From NCBI GenBank assembly GCA_965218585.1, contig CBDCLE010000002.1:384001-448000 (forward strand): a DNA stretch of 64,000 nucleotides, read 5' to 3'. Below, piece after piece: positions 7,659-52,174 of the stretch (the first letter of the stretch is position 1; each line of letters begins with the position of its first letter). The notes beneath the pieces were generated by a model. It was not told the DNA's origin. It did no database searches and was given only the letters and a program-made list of their open reading frames with translations. This DNA comes from Terriglobia bacterium (GTDB lineage: Bacteria; Acidobacteriota; Terriglobia; 20CM-2-55-15). The translations under genes were made by a program, and so were the position numbers.

Positions 7659-9173
7659 AGGCCAACCCCAAAGAGCTGGATCACCTCGCCTGTCGGAAGA
7701 GCAAAAGAGTCAATGACGCGGAACGAATTCGGATCACCGAGCATGTGCTCAACAATAAGCTGGCGATCCGGAGAGAACAAGAACGAACCGGGAACGCCGT
7801 AGTTGCCCTCCGAAACCAGAATGAAGTCATTGTCGGCGATCGCGGCTTCGTCAAACGCCCACAATCGATTTATCGTAACGTCCTCTTCCCTGAGAGCAAT
7901 GTAAAGCTCGAAAGCCCGTGGATCGAAGCGCGCTATGTCGGGCACGATCCCGAGCCGCACCGCGCTGCCATCCCCAGACTGGACCGCATCGAGTACCTGT
8001 TCAATCTTCCAGTCCTCGCTGGCGGGGCGGCCCCAAAGCCCAAAGTAGCTTTGGGCATAGACATTCCAATTGTACGAGAGTGGCCCCCGGACACCCTCCA
8101 TCAACACGACTCTCTCCGGCAGGCTGCGAATCCCAAAGGAAACCAGGTAATGCTGAAAAACGAGAAACGGCACCAGAACGGCAAGCAGGATCTGTTTCTT
8201 CTCAAAAACCTTGGCGGTTATCAAAGCCACTGCCGGCAGGAGAGGCACGCTATAACGAGGATCCTTGTTTTGAAAGAGCATCAGACCGAACCATCCACTG
8301 AGAATCCAGAAACCAATCGGCGCCCATCGAGGGTCGAAGCGCCGCGCTACCAGCACCGCTCCGGCGATAAAGACAATGAAGAGGGGCAAAAACACTTGAT
8401 AGCCTTCAAGGGCCCGGACGTAGAACACCACCGCCTGAAAGCTGATTCGGGGAGGATCGCCTTCTCCCACACCGTCGTTCGTATTCAGGGCAAGGAACTC
8501 GGTCAGTGAGGTCAGCTGGGGGAGATACCAATAGGCCGCCACGATCAGTGCAGCGCCCGCACTTATCGCAGCGTTCTTTACGTTTTTGCGGGCAAACCAG
8601 ATGAACGGGAAGGCAAGGAAAAATGCGAACGTCCACTTTGTCAGCATGCCGAGCCCGCAGACGACGCCGAAAATCATGGACCAGTTCCGATTGTCTAGGC
8701 CTTTCGACACAAGCAGCCACATTGCGAGCGCCACCATGCTCGTCAGCCAGTAGTCCATCATCGCTTCTCTGGACAGCCACAGCATGAGTGGGTAAAAGCT
8801 CACGAGGACGGCCGCACTTGCAGCTCCAATTGGGGAAAGGACGGTCTTGCCAATTCCGTACGTCGCGATCATGAGAAGAAGGATCGCTGGCAAATTCGCC
8901 CACAGGGCCGCATCGACGCTTCTGCCAAAGACGCTATAAAAGAGCGCCACGATCGACTGATACAGCGGGGGGGTAATAACCTGTAAGTCCGCCCCCAACC
9001 GATGCCATGGCGTCGATCACAGAAGTGGTCCGGAACGCCTCGTAGATCCTGAGCGCCGCGCTCTGGTGGGCCGCCATATCCCAGAAAGGCGGCCGCGTAT
9101 CGTAGGCGATCCAAACCAGGTTGGTCGCGATCAAATACGCTCCAGAAAGAAACAGCAGCATTTGATGTCGCAT
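7655..9173 (-). pseudogene. GT-C (ArnT/PMT, GT39/83-like) membrane glycosyltransferase, +1 frameshift in a G7 run at 8967-8973
   Basis: PPFWDMAAH...GYYPP joins PPLYQ...LGMLTKWTF...KDPRYSVPLLP; multiple TM segments; length 3n+1. Confidence 0.8.
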
Positions 9174-26126: not shown

Positions 26127-27362
26127 TCAATGAATCGGAAGCATGAGCCGTGCCAGCTCAGCTCCGTTCGGAAGCAGAAGGTCTTCCGGAACATGCTGCC
26201 CTTCAGTGATATACGAAACAGGCAACAGGAACCGGAGTAGTTCCCCGACGATCGACCCCCTGGTCTCGGTTTCGTCCATCTTCGTGAGGACAACCGACCG
26301 GGGTGAGAGCCGGTGAAAACGCTTGTAAATCTTGGAGACGTCTTCGGACTTTGTCGTGGCGCTGAGGACAAGCCTGACCCGTGCTCCGAGGCCATCCAGT
26401 CCGCTTTCGAGCTTACCCAGCCGCGCCCGGTCTGATGGACTGCAGCCCGCCGTGTCAACGAGAACAAGATCGTATTCGTCCAGCGACTCGACCAATTCTT
26501 TCAGCTGTGCCGTGTCGGAACATTTGAACGTTGTTATCCCGAGCAACTGTCCGTATCGGTAAAGTTGCTCTTGACCGGTCACCCTCTGGCCATCGGTTGA
26601 AATCAGAGCGACTTTCTTCCCGTGGCGAACCGCTGCATGTCCCGCAATCTTGGCGATAGTCGTCGTCTTACCAACTCCTGTGGGTCCAACGAACACACTG
26701 ACGACGCGCTCATTTGACGACAACTCATCCGGTGCTTCGATCGAAAACATCTCTCCAAGCAACGCACGTACGGCGTCTCGGGTCTTGCCCGACTTTGGAT
26801 TCAGCCTGGCGGCGCTTGCAAGGAGGTTCTCCACAAACTCCGGATCCACCCCCTGACCCACAAGCTCGCTGTAGATATCACCGTGCCGCCCTTCCCTCTG
26901 AGGAATGGCCTGTCCAAGCAGTCGGACGGACCTCTTGAGTTCATCAATCTCTTCGAGAACTTCTTCGATTCGGGCCTCAGCCTTGCGAATAAGACGCGAC
27001 GGCGCTTCGAACTCCGACATAGCTGCACCGGACACATCCGTCGACCGAACTACCCGATCCACATCAACGTTGGTCCGGACAGGCGGGTCCACCAGTTTCT
27101 CAGTGGTTCGCACGACCTCGGGCGAAATAGATACCGAATCGGGAACGTCAGCAGCGATCTTATCGATGGGGCTTTCAGTCACCGCCGTTTCGGTCGCTTC
27201 CTTGGCTCCTGCGGTCACCTCCCATCTCTGGCGCCGAATGCCCCAGGGCTTGCGAGTGGTCACGGGCCGCGTGCCGAGGATCATCGCGTCGGGACCGAAA
27301 TCGCGCTTGATATGCTCGACCGCTTCCTTGATCGACCGTGTTTGATACGTTTTCACCTTCAT
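26127..27362 (-). CDS. flhF: SRP-type GTPase FlhF
   Basis: MKVKTY...GPDAMIL; GPTGVGKTTT, DTAG, TKMDE, GQHVPEDL. Confidence 0.93.
   Translation of the reverse strand: MKVKTYQTRSIKEAVEHIKRDFGPDAMILGTRPVTTRKPWGIRRQRWEVTAGAKEATETAVTESPIDKIAADVPDSVSISPEVVRTTEKLVDPPVRTNVDVDRVVRSTDVSGAAMSEFEAPSRLIRKAEARIEEVLEEIDELKRSVRLLGQAIPQREGRHGDIYSELVGQGVDPEFVENLLASAARLNPKSGKTRDAVRALLGEMFSIEAPDELSSNERVVSVFVGPTGVGKTTTIAKIAGHAAVRHGKKVALISTDGQRVTGQEQLYRYGQLLGITTFKCSDTAQLKELVESLDEYDLVLVDTAGCSPSDRARLGKLESGLDGLGARVRLVLSATTKSEDVSKIYKRFHRLSPRSVVLTKMDETETRGSIVGELLRFLLPVSYITEGQHVPEDLLLPNGAELARLMLPIH
26140..26156 (-). promoter_or_regulatory. Putative sigma-54 promoter for fliA, inside the 3' end of flhF
   Basis: CTGGCACGGCTCATGCT (GG-N10-GC), ~57 nt upstream of the fliA start. 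Confidence 0.65.
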
Positions 27363-29393
27363 TGTCCAACAACTCCTTGCGACACAATCTGCAGGTTCGG
27401 TGGGATGTCATTCGGAGAAACAATCGTCAACTGGGGGATGAACCTTTCAATCAGCTTCCTCAGGTGGTAGCGGATGGTGCTCGAGCACAGTAAGGTCCAC
27501 TGAGACGTTGTCAACGTCTGACAGGTTGTACCGAGTTCCTGAACCAGATCTTCAAATCCCTTGGAATTCAGCGCCAGATATGCTCCCGACTCGTCCTGGA
27601 TAAGGGAATCCTTCAGCCTTGCTTCCCAGTCCGGGGACAGCGAAATAACAGGTAGCGCACCAGTTTCGTTCAGCAATGGTTTTGTGATCGACCGGCTCAG
27701 CGAAGCACGGACCGCTTCGGTTAACGTCGCGGGATCTTTCGTGCGAACACCGTAATCGGCAAGCGCTTCGAAGATCGTCACCAGATCGCGGATCGATACT
27801 TTTTCACGGAGGGGACTCTGCAGAACCTTCTGAACTTCACCAACCGAAAGTGTCGTGGGTACAAGTTCTTCAACGAGCTTCGGATAGGTTTCGCCAACGT
27901 GGTCGATCAGGGTCTTGACTTCCTGGCGGCCCAGCAGTTCGTGGGCATGCGACCGAATCATCTCGGTGAGGTGCGTGGCCAGGATCGTGGAAGCGTCCAC
28001 GACCGTGTAGTTCATCAGTTGCGCCCGTTCTTTGTTTTCTTTAGTTATCCAGAACGCGGGCAATCCAAACGTCGGCTCCTTGGTGGGCGTGCCTTCGATC
28101 GTTCCAGTGGTGCTCCCCGGATCGATTGCCATCAGGCGGTCCATCATCAACTCTGCCCGACCAATCTCGGAACCCTTGAGAAGAATGGAGTATTCCCGGG
28201 AACCCATCTTGAGGTTGTCAGTGATGTTGACGGGAGGCACAATCATGCCCAATTCTTGCACCAGTTGTTTTCGGATCGAGCGGATGCGGCTGAGGAAGTC
28301 TCCTCCGACCTGAGTGTCGACCAGACCCACGAGTCCATAGCCGATCTCCACGGCCAGACTGTCGATCTTGAGGAACGCAGTCGCCCGCTCTACGGTTCCC
28401 TCTTCAGGAGGTGGAGCTTCGAGGACGGGTTCTTCTGCGCGTTGCCTTGCCAGGCTCGACGCTGTCCAGGCAACACCACCCAGAACGGCTCCCAGAGCAA
28501 GAAATCCTACTGTCGGTAAACCCGGCACCAGTCCCAGACCGGTGACGATCGCGCATGCGAAAAAGACCGGCTTGGGATCTTCGAAAAGCTGACCCGCAAC
28601 GTCCTCACCCAGACTCCTTTCCGCAGCAGCGCGGGTCGTGATGAGGCCGCCACCGATAGAAATCAGGAGCGAGGGAATCGCGGTGACCAGACCATCACCA
28701 ATGGTGAGGATCGTGAAGGTCTCGAGCGCAACCAGAGCGTCCATGCCGTTCTGGAACATACCAATGAACAGGCCGCCAACGATGTTGATCAGAGTGATAA
28801 GAATGGATGCCATCGCGTCACGCTGTGTGAATCGAATGGCACCGTCCGTCGCTCCGTAGAAGTCAGCTTCCCGGCCAACTTCAGCTCGACGGTCGCGGGC
28901 CTCATCCTGATCGATGATTCCCGCATTGAGGTCAGCGTCGATCGACAACTGCTTTCCGGGCAGGGCGTCCAGGGTGAATCGTGCCGTGACTTCTGAAATA
29001 CGCACGGCACCGTGGTTGATAACGACGTACTGGATGATGATCAGGACGAGGAAAATGATCAGACCTACGGCGTAATTCCCCCCCGACGACGAATTGTCCG
29101 AAGGCACCGATGACGTTTCCGGCGGCGCCGAAACCCTCCCCTCCGTTGAGAAGAATGAGCCGGGTGGAGGCAATGTTCAGTGAAAGTCGAAACAACGTCG
29201 TCAGCAACAGGATGGACGGAAATGCTGAAAACTGGACCGGCTTTATCACGTAGAGGGCTGCGAGCAGAACGACGACAGACAGCGAAATGTTGGTCGAAAT
29301 CAGGAGATCCAGGAAGACCGGCGGCAGAGGCACCAATAGCGCTGTCAAAATAACGATGACAACCGCAGGCATGGCTACCTGTGCTTTGACCAT
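27359..29393 (-). pseudogene. flhA: Export gate protein FlhA, +1 frameshift in a C7 run at 29078-29084
   Basis: FPSILLLTTLFRLSLNIASTRLIL...FVVGG | NYAVG...EVTARFTLDALPGKQ...GDGLV; length 3n+1. Confidence 0.9.
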
Positions 29394-30589: not shown

Positions 30590-31339
30590 TCATCTCAGGA
30601 CTACGAAACCGGCCACCTCACGCATGATGGCCGGGAATACGACCAGGGATGCGCCCAGCGTGACGAGTCCCACAAGCACCTTGATCGGTAGAGCCAGGAT
30701 GATCGCGTTGAACTGAGGTTGCATCCGGGCGAGGAAACCAACAGCCATGTCACTGAGCAGAACAACAACGAACAAGGGGAAGCCGATCTTCCAGCCCACC
30801 ACAAAGATGTTGCCCGCGGTGGTCATGAGGAGATCGAACCAGTCGGCGATTGCGGGAACACCGCCAATCGGAAAACTCTCGTAGCTGAACTGCATTGCAC
30901 GGATGAATTCGTGATATTGATCGGCGGCCAGAAACACCGCATAGCCAATCAGCGTGAAGTAGCCGGACATGAGTGAGGATCGATTCTGAGTCTGCGGGTC
31001 AATGGCCTGGACGGCGGAAAAACCCATGCTGAAGCCGACGAGCTGGCCGGCAAAGTGCAGTACCGCAAAGGCAATGCGGATCCCCATCCCGAGCAGGAGA
31101 CCTACAAAGAACTCGCCTGGCAGGACGAGTTCGGGATGCTCCATCGCGGCCTCATTGAAAGGAATGATGGGAGCCACCCCCGCTGCGGTGACAAAGATCA
31201 GGAGCATGCGCACCTGACTCGGTATACCCGGATTGCCCCATATGGGGGAGAACGCCAGCATCGCTCCGATCCGGACTGCGACGATCAGGACGTGGATTAT
31301 GTAGAGGTATGGAATCTGGACTTCGAAGATCTCGCCCAT
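30590..31339 (-). CDS. fliR: Export apparatus protein FliR
   Basis: RIGAMLAFSPIWG...AGQLVGFSMG...LARMQPQFN...LPIK. Confidence 0.93.
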   Translation of the reverse strand: MGEIFEVQIPYLYIIHVLIVAVRIGAMLAFSPIWGNPGIPSQVRMLLIFVTAAGVAPIIPFNEAAMEHPELVLPGEFFVGLLLGMGIRIAFAVLHFAGQLVGFSMGFSAVQAIDPQTQNRSSLMSGYFTLIGYAVFLAADQYHEFIRAMQFSYESFPIGGVPAIADWFDLLMTTAGNIFVVGWKIGFPLFVVVLLSDMAVGFLARMQPQFNAIILALPIKVLVGLVTLGASLVVFPAIMREVAGFVVLR

Positions 31340-31346
31340 GAGGGAA

Positions 31347-31457
31347 TCACCCTACGTACGGTTCGAACGAGCCCAGCAACGTCTCGGTGAAAGAGATCAT
31401 GTATCCCATCATCCAGGGGAAGATGACCAAAAAGACCAGGAAGGTCACAACGATACG
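31347..31457 (-). pseudogene. fliQ: 3' remnant of fliQ truncated by IS110
   Basis: RIVVTFLVFLVIFPWMMGYMISFT matches the FliQ C-terminus, directly upstream of fliR; the 5' half is absent from the window. Confidence 0.8.
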
Positions 31458-31599
31458 CGTTTCTATGGAAGGGGCTGTCAAGAGAAACACGTCCCCGCCG
31501 AGCGGACCACCGGACCCAACACTGTCGTGGCAGCCAGCCCCTGTCTCCGTTGAGACGAACTGTTGATCCGGCATCGCAGAGAAGTCGATCACTCATCAC

Positions 31600-31845
31600 A
31601 ACGTGGTGTGGTTTCGAGAAACTGAAAAGCGCAAAGGGGTCGTGATTGCCGACCACGGTTCTATCTGAGCCTCGAGGGCTATCGCTTTTCCAGGTCGTGC
31701 GAGGGGGGATAGAGTATTACATGGGCCTTCAGCAAGCGCTGTGTGCCAACCGCGTATCGGATCCTCACCCTCGACCCTACCGTTCCGACGCCTCACCGAC
31801 GACGAGCGGTCGAATGCCTCGCGCTGTCGGCAGAAGTCTGGAAAC
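31600..31845 (-). ncRNA. Candidate bridge RNA / seekRNA of the IS110 element (boundaries approximate)
   Basis: Contains CGATACGCG (reverse complement of core + right target) and ATAGAACCG (8/9 match to left donor + core), the latter in an internal loop closed by GAAAAGCG/CGCTTTTC. Confidence 0.6.
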
Positions 31846-31847
31846 GG

Positions 31848-32909
31848 CTATGTCGCCAAGTTCAGTTTCTTTGCGTTAAACGTGTCTCCTTTCTTCCACA
31901 TCTTCAGTGCGGTCGCTGCAATCTTCCTCGCCAGTGTCAGCCGAGCCATCTCCTTACGCTTGCCGTCTTTCTGGAGCCCCTCCAGGTAGCTTTTCCAAGG
32001 TTCGGCCCCCATGCCTCCGGTCGCCGCCCCGATGAACACATCTTTCAAACGTCGGTTGCCGTTGCGGTTCAGTCCCCGCGTGGCGATCGGCTTTCGACGA
32101 CGTACCACACGACTCCCTTCCTGCTCATACTCCGCACTCATGTGCATTGCCACGGCCAGACCGCTGTAGTTCCAGAGCTGGCGTTTGGTTCGAAATCGAT
32201 GCGGGGTGTCCCCCGTCGCTACAATCAAGGCGCAACGTATCGGTCCCAACTGGGGAATCGTCTGCAATATCCCCACCGCACGATGCTTGCGGCTCTCGGT
32301 TAACATCGCCAGCTTCGCTTTTTTTCTTAACCCTCTCAGATGATCCAGCTCCTCATACAACCATCCGGTACGCCGCCGTGCACCGGTATTGGCGAGCTGT
32401 TCGATCCAGTGTTCCCGCTGCGATGGGAGGTAGACGCCGTGGCCCGGCGTCCGGATCCCACGTCCTCGATACATTGCCTTGATCCGAACCATCGTCCGCT
32501 GCGTATCCAGGGTCAAGGTCTCATATCCGCGGACCAGTTCTTTCAACGTCCGCGTCGCATCGTGCCCGTGGTAGACCGACCGCAGCCATCCGGCCCGGAG
32601 CAGCTCGGCCAGTTTCAGGGCATCCACCCGGTCGGTCTTGGACCCGTCACTGAGCAGTTTGTTCCGTCTGGGATCACACACGATCACTTCGCTCACATAT
32701 CCCCGGACCACGTTGTAGAGCCATTCGGCCTGCGTGGTTTCTTCAAACGTCACGTGCAGCTCACCACTCAGACTCTCCAGCAAATCAATGATTGGCCCGG
32801 CCTGGGTCTCTACGATCTTTTCCCAGACCAGTTTGCCGTCTGCGTTTAAGACCATCACCACCGTCGTTGCCTGGTGCACATCCATGCCGATATACTTGGC
32901 CTGTTTCAT
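31848..32909 (-). CDS. IS110-family DEDD recombinase/transposase
   Basis: YIGMDVH, TFEE, KTDRVDA, TIPQLGP, YSGL...SA, LARKIA. Confidence 0.95.
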   Translation of the reverse strand: MKQAKYIGMDVHQATTVVMVLNADGKLVWEKIVETQAGPIIDLLESLSGELHVTFEETTQAEWLYNVVRGYVSEVIVCDPRRNKLLSDGSKTDRVDALKLAELLRAGWLRSVYHGHDATRTLKELVRGYETLTLDTQRTMVRIKAMYRGRGIRTPGHGVYLPSQREHWIEQLANTGARRRTGWLYEELDHLRGLRKKAKLAMLTESRKHRAVGILQTIPQLGPIRCALIVATGDTPHRFRTKRQLWNYSGLAVAMHMSAEYEQEGSRVVRRRKPIATRGLNRNGNRRLKDVFIGAATGGMGAEPWKSYLEGLQKDGKRKEMARLTLARKIAATALKMWKKGDTFNAKKLNLAT

Positions 32910-33017
32910 TTACGTGCTCCTTTGTCTTTGAATTCAACGCAGCTACGTTGAATGGGTTGTTGTCGGGAGATTTTCCTCCTGGCAACAGCCGACAAAGGGG
33001 CGTCCTTCCTTATAGCG

Positions 33018-33141
33018 TGTTGCTGTGCCAAGAGCCACCGAAGAAAAGATTCAATTCGAGATCTCCCGACCCCTGAGACAGGGCGGGACGGGCGGTGAGG
33101 AGCAATCCGATCAAGAGGACACCTAAAGAGAGCCTACGCAT
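33018..33141 (-). pseudogene. 5' fragment of a secreted, probably outer-membrane beta-barrel gene cut by IS110
   Basis: RBS GAGG then MRRLSLGVLLIGLLLTARPALSQGSGDLELNLFFGGSWHSNT, ending at the IS junction. Confidence 0.6.
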
Positions 33142-33307
33142 GCGTGAACCTCAACCCTGCGCAGATAGCCTGCACACGGTTCTCCAGGCGCGCTCGACCG
33201 AAAACGACCTTATGGTTCCTGAAACAGTAACGGAAAGGACTCGCTAAAGTCAAACAAACTTAGGGCTTATGGCCGTTTGAGAGGGTTCGACCCGGATGCC
33301 CCTTTTG

Positions 33308-48623: not shown

Positions 48624-49817
48624 ATGATGAGAGGCTCCTCCTTCAAATGGCTTGCTGCCCTCGCTCTGACGGCTTCCATGTCGGTCGGGGCGTTGTCTCC
48701 CCTACGCATCGAAACGACCGTTCGGTGGCTGTCCGATTCCATGCGGGAAGGGCGGGCCTCAGCCAGCGATGGAGCGGATGCAACCGGAGACTACCTTCTG
48801 GAGCAGTTTCTCGAAATGGGCCTTGAGGCCGAGTTCCAGAATATCGATTTGGAGAGGCGAAACGTTGTTGGACGGCTGGGTACCTCCCTGCGGCATATCG
48901 TCATCGGCGCACATTACGACGGGCAGGGAAGAGGGTTTCCTTCCGCAAGCGACAACGCGGCCGGCGTGGCGGTGATGTTGGAACTGGCGCGCGAGCTGGC
49001 GGACGCGGAGTTGGGCGCGTCTTTGTTATTTGTCGCCTTCGATGACGAAGAGCGAGGACTCAACGGATCCCGGCACTATGTCGCCAACCCGATTCTGCCG
49101 CTGGACGATGCGCTTGGCGTCATCATCATGGACACGATGGGCCGCAGCTTCATCGATCTGGAGCGCTGGACTCTGATCGTTCTCGGCGCAGAGTTCGCAC
49201 CTCGGCTGGGAGAGATCGTCGGTTCCCACGGCGGGGAAGAGCTCACGCTCCTCGGCACCGATCTGGTGGGACCGCGAAGTGATTTTGCACCCTTTGCTGC
49301 TGCCGGGGTGCCCTACCTGTTTTTCTCGAACGCGACCCACGCCGACTACCACGGCCGGGGCGATACGCCCGATCGATTGAACTATTCGCGCCTGGACTCT
49401 GATGGCGAGACGATCCGGCAGGTCGTACTGGACATCGCGAGGCTCGATACGCGCCCGGAGTACCTGGCGTCACCCATATATCCGGAGAACGAAGCGTCTC
49501 GGCTCGTTCAGTTGATGGGGACAATCGAGATCGAGCGGAGTGAGGTGGCCGCTCGGTACGGGGTATTGTTTGATGACCTGAGAGAGCGGTTGATGGATCA
49601 GCCGACGCGCCAGGAATTGCGGTTGGCCACCTCGGTCCTGTTGGCCGTTGCAACCCCAAGTGTGTCTTCGTTCTCGTTATCGTCTCTGATCGGACCCTTC
49701 TATGAGGCGGAGGGGAAGTCCGATCAGGCCTTGGCTGCCTACAGGGAAGCTCTTCGTTCGACAAGCAACCCCTTCGCACGGGGAACGTTGGAAGACAAGA
49801 TCCGATCCCTGGATTGA
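48624..49817 (+). CDS. M28-family peptidase
   Basis: GAHYD, ASDNAAG, DDEERGL, RSDFAPF, DYHGRGD. Confidence 0.9.
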   Translation: MMRGSSFKWLAALALTASMSVGALSPLRIETTVRWLSDSMREGRASASDGADATGDYLLEQFLEMGLEAEFQNIDLERRNVVGRLGTSLRHIVIGAHYDGQGRGFPSASDNAAGVAVMLELARELADAELGASLLFVAFDDEERGLNGSRHYVANPILPLDDALGVIIMDTMGRSFIDLERWTLIVLGAEFAPRLGEIVGSHGGEELTLLGTDLVGPRSDFAPFAAAGVPYLFFSNATHADYHGRGDTPDRLNYSRLDSDGETIRQVVLDIARLDTRPEYLASPIYPENEASRLVQLMGTIEIERSEVAARYGVLFDDLRERLMDQPTRQELRLATSVLLAVATPSVSSFSLSSLIGPFYEAEGKSDQALAAYREALRSTSNPFARGTLEDKIRSLD

Positions 49818-50711: not shown

Positions 50712-52174
50712 AGCGATGGCAGGCACTTGTTTTTCCGGTCGTGATGATTGTGGCCGTGGGATGCGCGAAGAGCATTCCGACCCCTCAGCACAACCTCAGC
50801 ATTGCGGCACCGGAGGAGTGGACCGGCGGCGGGTTGGAGACGGGAACCCTCGACCAGGATTGGTGGATCTACTTTGAAGATGCCGACCTGAACCGGGCGA
50901 TTTCCGAGGCTCTTGAGGGAAACCACGACCTTCGCGCGGCTGCGGCGAGAATCGAAACGGCCCGTGCGGATGCTCTTATCGCGGGGGCCCCATTGCTGCC
51001 TGATACGAACTTAACGGTGGGGCGTAGTCAGCAGCGGCAGAACTTCATCGGCTTTCCGATTCCGGGAAGCGAATCGAACGTTTTGAGTACGACGTCCACG
51101 AACTACACCCTACGACTGAACGCAAGCTGGGAGCCTGATCTATGGGGGCGGATCCTCTCCGGTGAGCTTGGGGCGGTGACCAACACTCGAATCCGATATG
51201 CCGATCTCGCAGCTGCCCGCCTCTCTTTAACGGGTCAGGTTGCGAAAGCCTGGTTTGCCGCGGTCGAGGCCCAGCGGCAGGTCGAACTCGCGGAGATCTC
51301 GCTCGCCAGCTATCGGGTTTCTGCGGACAGGGTTCAGGCGCGTTTCCAGAGTGGCTTACGACCGTCGCTGGATTTGAGGCTGTCGCTGACAGAAGCGGCG
51401 ACGGCAGAAGCGACACTTGAGCAGCGGCTCGAGCAGCGCGATCGTGCCGAGAGGCAGCTCGAGACATTGATGGGTCGATACCCGTCGGGAGATTACGCTC
51501 TGGTTTCGGACCTGCCCGATCTGCCGACTTCGATTCCCGGGGGACTTCCATCCGAGTTGGTGCATCGCCGTCCCGATCTGGTTTCGGCTGAACTACAGGT
51601 TCTGGTCGCCGATACGCGAATCGCACAGGCCCAGGCTGATCTGCGCCCGCGATTCAGCCTCACTTCGGGAACAGGGACGTCGAGTGGCGACCTGCTTGAC
51701 CTGGTTGATAGCGACCTCTTCGTCTGGAACCTCGTAGGGAACATTGTTCAACCCCTATTCAATAACGGACGTCTGAAGGCGACCGTAGAACGGAATCAGA
51801 GTACGGTCGACGAACTGATGGCCAACTATGAGAGCCGGATTCTCCAGTCGTATCGGGAAGTCGAATCCGCTCTGGCCTCGGAGGAACTTCTCCTCCGCCG
51901 GGAGCAGGCCATAGCCGAGGCCGTACGCCAGTCGGTAGCCGCTCAGGAATTAGCCGAAGAACGTTACCGGTTGGGTCTGGCCGACATCATCACTGTGCTT
52001 TCCGCACAACGCACGGCGTACAACTCGGAAAGCCAGTTGCTGACGTTGAGGCGAACGCGACTGGACAATCGAGTCGATCTTCATCTGGCGCTCGGGGGTG
52101 GTTTCGATGGGGGGGATGTGCCCTCCGCCCTCGACCTCTTGGCCTCAGGCAATTTTGAAGGTGAATCCAATTGA
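50708..52174 (+). CDS. RND outer-membrane factor lipoprotein (NodT/OprM family)
   Basis: Lipobox AVGC; ASWEPDLWGR; LPSELVHRRPDL; LHLALGGG. Confidence 0.93.
   Translation: MKRWQALVFPVVMIVAVGCAKSIPTPQHNLSIAAPEEWTGGGLETGTLDQDWWIYFEDADLNRAISEALEGNHDLRAAAARIETARADALIAGAPLLPDTNLTVGRSQQRQNFIGFPIPGSESNVLSTTSTNYTLRLNASWEPDLWGRILSGELGAVTNTRIRYADLAAARLSLTGQVAKAWFAAVEAQRQVELAEISLASYRVSADRVQARFQSGLRPSLDLRLSLTEAATAEATLEQRLEQRDRAERQLETLMGRYPSGDYALVSDLPDLPTSIPGGLPSELVHRRPDLVSAELQVLVADTRIAQAQADLRPRFSLTSGTGTSSGDLLDLVDSDLFVWNLVGNIVQPLFNNGRLKATVERNQSTVDELMANYESRILQSYREVESALASEELLLRREQAIAEAVRQSVAAQELAEERYRLGLADIITVLSAQRTAYNSESQLLTLRRTRLDNRVDLHLALGGGFDGGDVPSALDLLASGNFEGESN

Follow-up and report, generated by a model that had tools for sequence, protein, structure and literature searches.

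RNA-guided recombination by IS110 and IS1111 elements was demonstrated in 2024 and bridge RNAs have been predicted for most IS1111 members, so that one more example brings little that is new in principle. According to the excerpted text of the seekRNA study (PMC11187229), the guide RNA of IS1111 elements carries two matches that overlap at the insertion point, the one to the top strand lying 5' of the one to the bottom strand, and has published lengths of 82–96 nucleotides (nt) in its short form and 145–172 nt in its long form. Another source, likewise in excerpt, reports a predicted right-end bridge RNA for 93.0% of the IS1111 elements in ISfinder, many of them with donor-binding bases in a multi-loop (PMC11208160). 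Here we describe an IS110-family element of the IS1111 type at positions 31462–33016 (minus strand, 1555 nt) of a 64,000-nt stretch of a Terriglobia bacterium genome (contig CBDCLE010000002.1, positions 384,001 to 448,000 of the forward strand), referred to below as the window. It is highly probable that the 3' non-coding region of this element encodes a seekRNA or bridge RNA of the IS1111 type and that the element is RNA-guided, a reading based on its anatomy, the logo of its target sites, the register of its core dinucleotide, covariation between guides and flanks, and covariation within stems.

The genome to which the window belongs (G000; 26 contigs, 95.5% complete) contains 16 near-identical copies, and the element ends were set by aligning their flank pairs. 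Read in transposase orientation, and with all features given below lying on the minus strand of the window, the layout is a left target, the dinucleotide AC, the element start GCTATAAGGAAGG..., the transposase gene (tnp), a 386-nt non-coding region ending in ...CCCCTTCCATAGA, two further bases, and the right target. The gene (31848–32909, placed by Pfam matches, alignment and open frames) encodes a 353-amino-acid (aa) transposase with a DEDD/RuvC-like N-terminal and a Transposase_20 C-terminal domain, and the non-coding region extends from its stop codon to the element end (31462–31847), which confirms the region of about 390 nt seen after the recombinase by the initial annotation, a reading of the DNA made without database searches. 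As only 107 nt precede the gene (32910–33016), the longer of the two non-coding regions lies 3' of tnp. The short 5' end begins with the right donor GCTATAAGGAAGG (33004–33016), identical in 16 of 16 copies and laid out in the same way in relatives, whose core-adjacent sequence is GCTATAAGG; positions 32910–33003 make up its remainder. At the opposite end the copy alignment delimits the left donor CCCCTTCCATAGA (31462–31474). Both donors include subterminal inverted repeats present in all 16 copies, the left one (CTATAAGGAAGG) two bases inside the end and the right one (CCTTCCATAG) followed by A. Subterminal inverted repeats together with a long downstream non-coding region are also the IS1111 layout described in the excerpt of PMC11187229. 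Since at most 5 of the 1556 aligned columns vary among copies, the 353-aa frame is open in every one of them, and the 16 different sites fit a single logo, recent activity of the element is indicated. Judged by these sequence characters, it can be regarded as a bona fide IS1111-type insertion sequence with a seekRNA or bridge RNA, and is probably active.

All 16 insertions share one orientation relative to their common logo, and only a 2-nt core is found at both junctions, with no long target duplication. Base counts among the 16 sites are G11 T9 A13 A8 T10 for left-target positions −5 to −1, and C15 G13 C14 G14 T13 A10 T11 for right-target positions +1 to +7; the latter are thus conserved in 10–15 of the 16 copies, whereas positions +8 and +9 show no selection. 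The register of the core follows from sites that relatives carry in uninterrupted form. One of them (locus L015) reads ..CGTCAT-GC-CGCCGATG.. in genomes G001, G003 and G004 (with its full left part, ..ACCGTCAT-GC-CGCCGATG..), and another (L007) reads ..CCCACT-AC-CATTTATTCGC.. in G002, so that exactly two bases separate left and right target where the element has two at each junction. At the left junction (33017–33018) these two bases are AC in 16 of 16 copies, as against a single AC or GC in the uninterrupted orthologous sites. A test of open reading frames (ORFs) spanning the restored site gave a much longer frame in the AC register at L004, L007, L010, L011 and L015; L003 also favours this register (longer frame, other strand), L005 favours the shorter register, and the remaining loci are uninformative. 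The core is therefore read as AC, and the 16-copy logo together with this register gives GTAAT-AC-CGCGTAT as the preferred insertion site.

An alternative register with a CG core (LT-A-CG-CGTAT, where LT is the left target), proposed in the initial annotation, is ruled out by the uninterrupted orthologous sites and the ORF-spanning test, and is likewise contradicted by the agreement of guide cores in 110 of 111 insertions described below. With AC as the core, the nonamer CGCGTATCG that begins the flanking 3' remnant of fliQ (remnant 31347–31459, nonamer 31451–31459; the PF01313 match is weak and below cut-off) belongs entirely to the right target. Both reported positions of the match on which that proposal was built, CGATACGCG at 31451–31459 on the plus strand and 31751–31759 on the minus strand, proved correct, and the match to the flank is real; only seven of its nine bases are under selection, positions +8 and +9 being unconserved. 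That the copies should share such a right flank is borne out as well, all 16 fitting one logo that includes the right target CGCGTAT.

The sequence expected to read this site lies in the first of two predicted RNA modules (module 1, 31700–31774). Its outer stem, formed by UCGAGGGUGAGGAUC (31760–31774) and UCUAUCCCCCCUCG (31700–31713, placed by the stem alignment), comprises 10 pairs, with 100% of cells paired in 98 aligned sequences. The 5' side of the enclosed loop contains the right-target guide CGAUACGCGGU (31749–31759), in which AUACGCG (31757 on) is complementary to right-target positions +7 to +1 and GU to the core AC, while its first two bases (CG) match the flank of the window copy only. 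On the 3' side, UGUAAUAC (31714–31721), that is UGUAAU followed by AC, constitutes the left-target guide, identified by the left-target logo and by covariation in 23 distinct loops; as it has the sense of GTAAT plus AC, it pairs with the bottom strand. The two guides flank an inner hairpin of variable sequence and conserved fold (31722–31748, from per-sequence folding and the centroid fold), and their matches overlap on the core AC. The initial annotation had noted no convincing left-target guide, and the reason why this one escaped it is that the left flank of the window copy, which comes from another locus, matches it poorly (3 identities and 2 G:U-type wobbles out of 6). Immediately after the stop codon, a minimum free energy fold weakly predicts a further 5' stem-loop (CCGUUUCC ... 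GGAACGG, 31780–31847), the CCGTTT and GGAA(A)CGG ends of which reappear in relatives.

Relatives of the element were collected by a protein search (matches in 16 of 61 genomes, G000 included), an exact-pattern scan of genome contigs (25 stretches, all from metagenome-assembled genomes (MAGs) of Terriglobia or other Acidobacteriota) and a looser pattern scan of soil metagenome contigs (at least 120 stretches, 80 with flanks). The scaffold was found in 205 of 212 loci (206 matches), and the right end could be called for 140, the left for 94 and both for 85. In module 1 it takes the common form UCGAGGG-N-RAG-N-AUC, a loop of about 12 nt, the variable hairpin, a loop of about 9 nt, and YNUAUSCCCYCUCG; module 2 consists of an outer stem, hairpin A, a single-stranded ..AUAG-R-NN.., hairpin B, and the return strand of the outer stem. 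Within this constant frame the guides change together with the flanking DNA. Taking one site (the first listed) per distinct right-target loop, which left 70 loops out of 114 distinct loop–site pairs, the mean longest run complementary to the core and right flank was 6.91 nt, compared with 3.08 nt after permutation and with a largest mean of 3.54 nt among 1000 permutations, none of which reached the observed value. Left-target loops behaved likewise once rows with a left end mis-registered by the pattern had been dropped (23 loops, mean run 5.35 nt versus 3.11 nt permuted, largest 4.09 nt in 1000 permutations, none reaching the observed mean). As a single instance, the element of G007, with 82% aa identity, has the guide GAUAAGCGGU and the flank AC-CGCUUAUC (AC-CGCTTATC), where the window element has GAUACGCGGU and AC-CGCGUAUC. 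Guide–target covariation, the check attached to the initial annotation, thus exceeds every permutation for both guides, and its central proposal of an RNA-guided IS110/IS1111 recombinase with target and donor guides is supported by the way guides and flanks vary together in relatives.

This behaviour bears directly on the suspicion that the complementarity arises from chance or base composition, and that the region is an ordinary 3' untranslated region, a terminator or a set of protein-binding DNA sites. Such an explanation could draw on the GC-rich window, on an unremarkable folding energy, and on the frequency of the nonamer CGCGTATCG, which has 5 exact matches in the window where 0.57 are expected (none of 100 shuffles reaches 5). 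Three of these matches are additional copies (9094–9102, 49445–49453 and 51610–51618), but none of them is occupied or has the AC core or the left-target match. Guides that vary with their flanks among 70 independent right-target and 23 independent left-target loop types, stems that stay paired through two-sided changes, and G:U pairs that are strand-specific leave this explanation scarcely credible.

The stem evidence comes from a structure alignment (MAFFT) of 98 of the 135 distinct sequences, covering 20 pairs in 4 helices. In it 93.1% of cells are paired, against 88.4% in shuffled alignments (none of 500 shuffles reaching the observed value), 63 cells are changed on both sides against 16.8, and the covariation score is 0.140 against 0.051; in slid controls 29–54% of cells are paired. 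Two pairs are especially informative, 18/104 in the target outer stem (UG 67, GC 20, CG 11) and 137/148 in hairpin A (GU 42, GC 29, CG 21, AU 3, UA 3), and the many G:U pairs among them (UG 67, GU 42) fit the transposase-sense strand only. The inner hairpin of module 1, being too variable for MAFFT, was folded sequence by sequence, giving a mean z of −1.77 relative to shuffles over 137 distinct segments, 98 of which have z < −1 and 5 z > 0.

Module 2 (31624–31691) is predicted to be the donor module. Its outer stem pairs GGAAAAGCG (31683–31691; centroid fold, 77.5% of cells paired) with CGCUUUUC (31624–31631; centroid fold and stem alignment), and is maintained through A-U to C-G double changes at 127/215, as when GAAAAGC/GCUUUUC in G000 is compared with GAAACAGC/GCUGUUC in G001. 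It encloses hairpin A (AGCC CUCGA GGCU, 31668–31680, 99.2% of cells paired) and hairpin B (GGUCGGCAAUCACGACC, 31638–31654, from the centroid fold, and with counterparts of variable sequence at this position in relatives). The stems proposed by the initial annotation, GAAAAGCG/CGCUUUUC at 31683–31691 and 31624–31631 and GGUCG/CGACC at 31638–31654, are both found in the centroid fold of 31620–31786. Between the two hairpins lies GAUAGAAC (31658–31665), which matches right junctions and consists of the AUAGA of the element's right end followed by the core AC, and which we take as a candidate left-donor guide. The motif already noted here, ATAGAACCG at 31656–31664, was correctly placed (with GATAGAAC at 31658–31665), although its guide reading had to be amended to AUAGA plus AC; that AUAGAACCG matched the end of the window copy (ATAGAAACG) at only 8 of 9 positions is explained by the right junction of this copy, which has AA in place of AC, as in 5 of 16 copies. 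Of the 111 distinct insertions, 110 show the same dinucleotide (AC, TC, AT or GC) as core of the left-donor guide and at the end of the left-target loop, in all 111 the base preceding this core follows the element end, and in 99 the last left-donor base and the core together are identical to the right junction, with five states represented (AAC, ATC, GAC, GAT and AGC).

Weak evidence of expression comes from two metatranscriptome libraries of one study (runs X16 and X17), in which RNA-library contigs of a variant 95–99% identical to the element cover 31688–31860 and 31688–32001. Their shared end at 31688, some 12 nt 3' of the target module, weakly hints at the 3' end of a short seekRNA. An outward-facing TTGACA (31476–31481), read from the sequence and kept in relatives, and a −10-like hexamer TATAAG within the right donor (33014–33009) would lie 18 nt apart in a circular form, in which TTGACA (31481–31476), the 18-nt spacer and TATAAG would likely constitute a junction promoter.

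Several results weigh against an RNA that guides both target and donor. Folded on its own, the sequence does no better than shuffles (z of +1.54 for 396 nt and +0.20 for the 167 nt of 31620–31786), and the invariance of helices 1 and 2 carries no weight, most of their positions having been fixed by the search pattern. An Rfam 15 scan of 31200–33300 at E up to 10 gave no family, its one match being to the small nucleolar RNA sR46, a chance match of 16.1 bits against a cut-off of 50. The RNA-library contigs stem from a variant and could be DNA carry-over, 31556–31683 is uncovered in these libraries, and neither a circle junction nor an empty site was seen in the contigs of four runs, although in both cases contigs cannot show absence. 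As for the donor module, 12 of 111 insertions carry at the right junction a core other than that of the guide, and with only five left-donor guide states among relatives, shared descent may inflate the agreement. Finally, a comparison by eye of six right-donor variants with the 5' segment of module 2, and with the sequence that follows hairpin B, yielded no right-donor guide. The 5' segment (GC-NN-UAG) does not follow these variants in relatives, and in the window element an AUAGC that could pair with GCTAT has no further right-donor match and no covariation with the variants.

The last of these points could be accommodated if the RNA guided the target only, with module 2 serving as scaffold or processing element, the protein reading the ends through the inverted repeats, and the AUAGA-AC match reflecting shared descent. 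Besides the missing right-donor guide and the small number of left-donor states, this option is favoured by the finding, in the excerpt of PMC11187229, that the target module sufficed for movement of ISEc11, with end recognition left open, and, weakly and from one study, by the two RNA-library contigs that break off at 31688, close to the 3' side of module 1. It would leave unexplained why the left-donor guide core changes with the core of the left-target loop in all but one of 111 insertions and why the base before it invariably follows the element end, and donor-matching bases are reported in the multi-loops of IS1111 bridge RNAs in the excerpt of PMC11208160. We therefore consider target-only guidance unlikely, and prefer an RNA with both target and donor guides.

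On this preferred reading the following scheme may be envisaged, in which RNA–protein binding, the circle, the promoter and the chemistry are carried over from the ISEc11 and IS621 publications. The element would excise as a circle whose joined ends form the promoter TTGACA-18 nt-TATAAG, from which tnp and the 3' non-coding region would be co-transcribed, the RNA then being processed into a bipartite guide. In the internal loop of module 1, between the outer stem and the variable inner hairpin, AUACGCG-GU would pair with the top strand of right target and core, and UGUAAU-AC on the 3' side with the bottom strand of left target and core. The single-stranded AUAGA-AC in the multi-loop of module 2 would read the right end of the element together with the core. 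Held by this RNA, the DEDD/Ser recombinase would exchange strands between circle and target at the AC core, so that AC would stand at the left junction and the core position would recur at the right one.

The two junctions do not behave alike, however. The left-junction core never departs from the guide (57 of 62 agree, the 5 misses being register errors of the pattern), whereas the right-junction position (31460–31461) varies, 10 copies having AC, 5 copies (that of the window included) AA and one copy GC. The AA copies are spread over three single-nucleotide polymorphism haplotypes and hence do not form one lineage. Intact fliQ of G001 reads ..TTCGT-AC-CGCGCATCG.. at the window site, so that AA in the window copy is probably not derived from the target. 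A target origin of AA could not be traced at two other loci either, the L011 flank not being conserved up to the junction in relatives, and the L003 site having an AC equivalent in G007 with its other flank not alignable. It is conceivable, if doubtful, that the junctions are non-equivalent because the donor is read half by RNA and half by protein and the exchange is asymmetric, the core of one strand being fixed by the recombinase and the other filled in or repaired. Such a mechanism would differ from the symmetric scheme of IS621.

The window copy is also peculiar in its location. Its flank carrying flhB, fliR and 3' fliQ (left in window coordinates) and its right flank are separated by 256 kb in G002 and by more than 1 Mb in G007 and lie on different contigs in G001, which places the copy at a rearrangement breakpoint, so that its two flanks do not represent one target. 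The second flank of this breakpoint is window 33019–33142; only the last ~37 codons of fliQ are left, and the FliP family was not found in G000 at its 95.5% completeness. A fusion of fliP' to 'fliQ was considered for these flanks and ruled out, since relatives show the right flank to be an unrelated locus. What remains is either a deletion of fliP and the 5' part of fliQ by recombination between two copies, or a joining of two copies in the assembly. The displaced flanks, along with short-read contigs that break at the element ends, might also be taken to mean that the element is no more than a dead relic, with the window copy as a chimera assembled across a repeat. This is very unlikely in view of 16 near-invariant copies with open frames at sites sharing one logo, and a chimeric join at one copy would leave the reading of the RNA untouched. 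Nearby, flhA is split over two overlapping frames (27359–29393, minus strand), a 153-aa N-terminal ORF (28932–29393) that leaves frame after ..FGQFVVGG and a 604-aa ORF (27359–29173) holding the rest; the apparent frameshift may reflect decay of a flagellar export gene or a sequencing error.

The transposase itself has the two domains of the family. PF01548 (DEDD_Tnp_IS110) matches residues 7–146 (E 3.4e-17) and PF02371 (Transposase_20) the C-terminal part (E 3.9e-9), and the recombinases of ISCro4 (9t56) and IS621 (8wt6) align over both domains, the N-terminal domain over residues 4–139, with E 4.2e-7 for IS621. Ser258, in GLAVAMHMSA, aligns with the Ser of IS621 GLTPRRYES (with Val for Pro and Ala for Gly) and is the probable catalytic serine.

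Three further observations concern the relatives and their surroundings. The element of G001, with 64% aa identity (loci L024, L038 and L047–L051), sits in a repeat (..TCAAGTCCTGATAAA-TC-ATCTTGTCGGACGTTGAGAAT..), both sides of which are conserved in 5–6 of 7 copies, and apparently targets a dispersed repeat, as ISPa11 targets repetitive extragenic palindromic (REP) sequences. At L015 in G000, bases 1–960 of the locus (contig C25) match dozens of places in G002, G003, G004 and G007 at 82–85% identity; this stretch of about 960 nt is an unrelated high-copy repeat or insertion sequence of the genus. Some relatives lose similarity within or directly behind one of the module 2 hairpins (A or B), for example L052 after GGTCGGTACTAGCC and both L145 and L158 beyond hairpin A; these are truncated or recombined copies keeping module 1 only.

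The value of this system lies in its data set, in which a single Acidobacteriota/soil scaffold carries at least 70 naturally reprogrammed right-target guides together with their flanks, forming a natural specificity series for an IS1111-type system, far less studied than IS621. With the guide positions and the AC core precisely annotated, off-target sites and activity can be predicted in the host genome, a genome which the element reshapes through 16 copies, one of them at a breakpoint where part of the flagellar export operon has been lost.

Compared with IS621 (PMC11208160 in excerpt; structures 8wt6-8wt9), the predicted RNA similarly has two modules, with a target loop and a putative donor loop that would read both strands around a 2-nt core. 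It lies 3' rather than 5' of tnp, however, the order of the strand matches is reversed, and the core is AC instead of CT. Two hairpins make the donor module a multi-loop, where IS621 has a simple internal loop, the inverted repeats are long, and no right-donor guide was recognised. Closer parallels are found among IS1111 elements. A right-end RNA with a multi-loop donor module is what the excerpt of PMC11208160 describes for predicted IS1111 bridge RNAs, and the order and overlap of the guides are those of the IS1111 seekRNAs, with a target module of about 75–80 nt and about 150–165 nt for both modules in the present element, sizes that correspond to the published short and long forms. ISEc11, ISPa11, ISKpn4 and ISPst6, as described in the excerpt of PMC11187229, likewise encode a DEDD transposase of about 340–350 aa followed by a downstream non-coding region; their serine motif is GL-P----S(T)G, as against GLAV....SA here. 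The likeness to this group is one of description, the present element belonging to another lineage (Terriglobia/Acidobacteriota MAGs and soil metagenomes) and having another target, but in both, natural retargeting has taken place between relatives.

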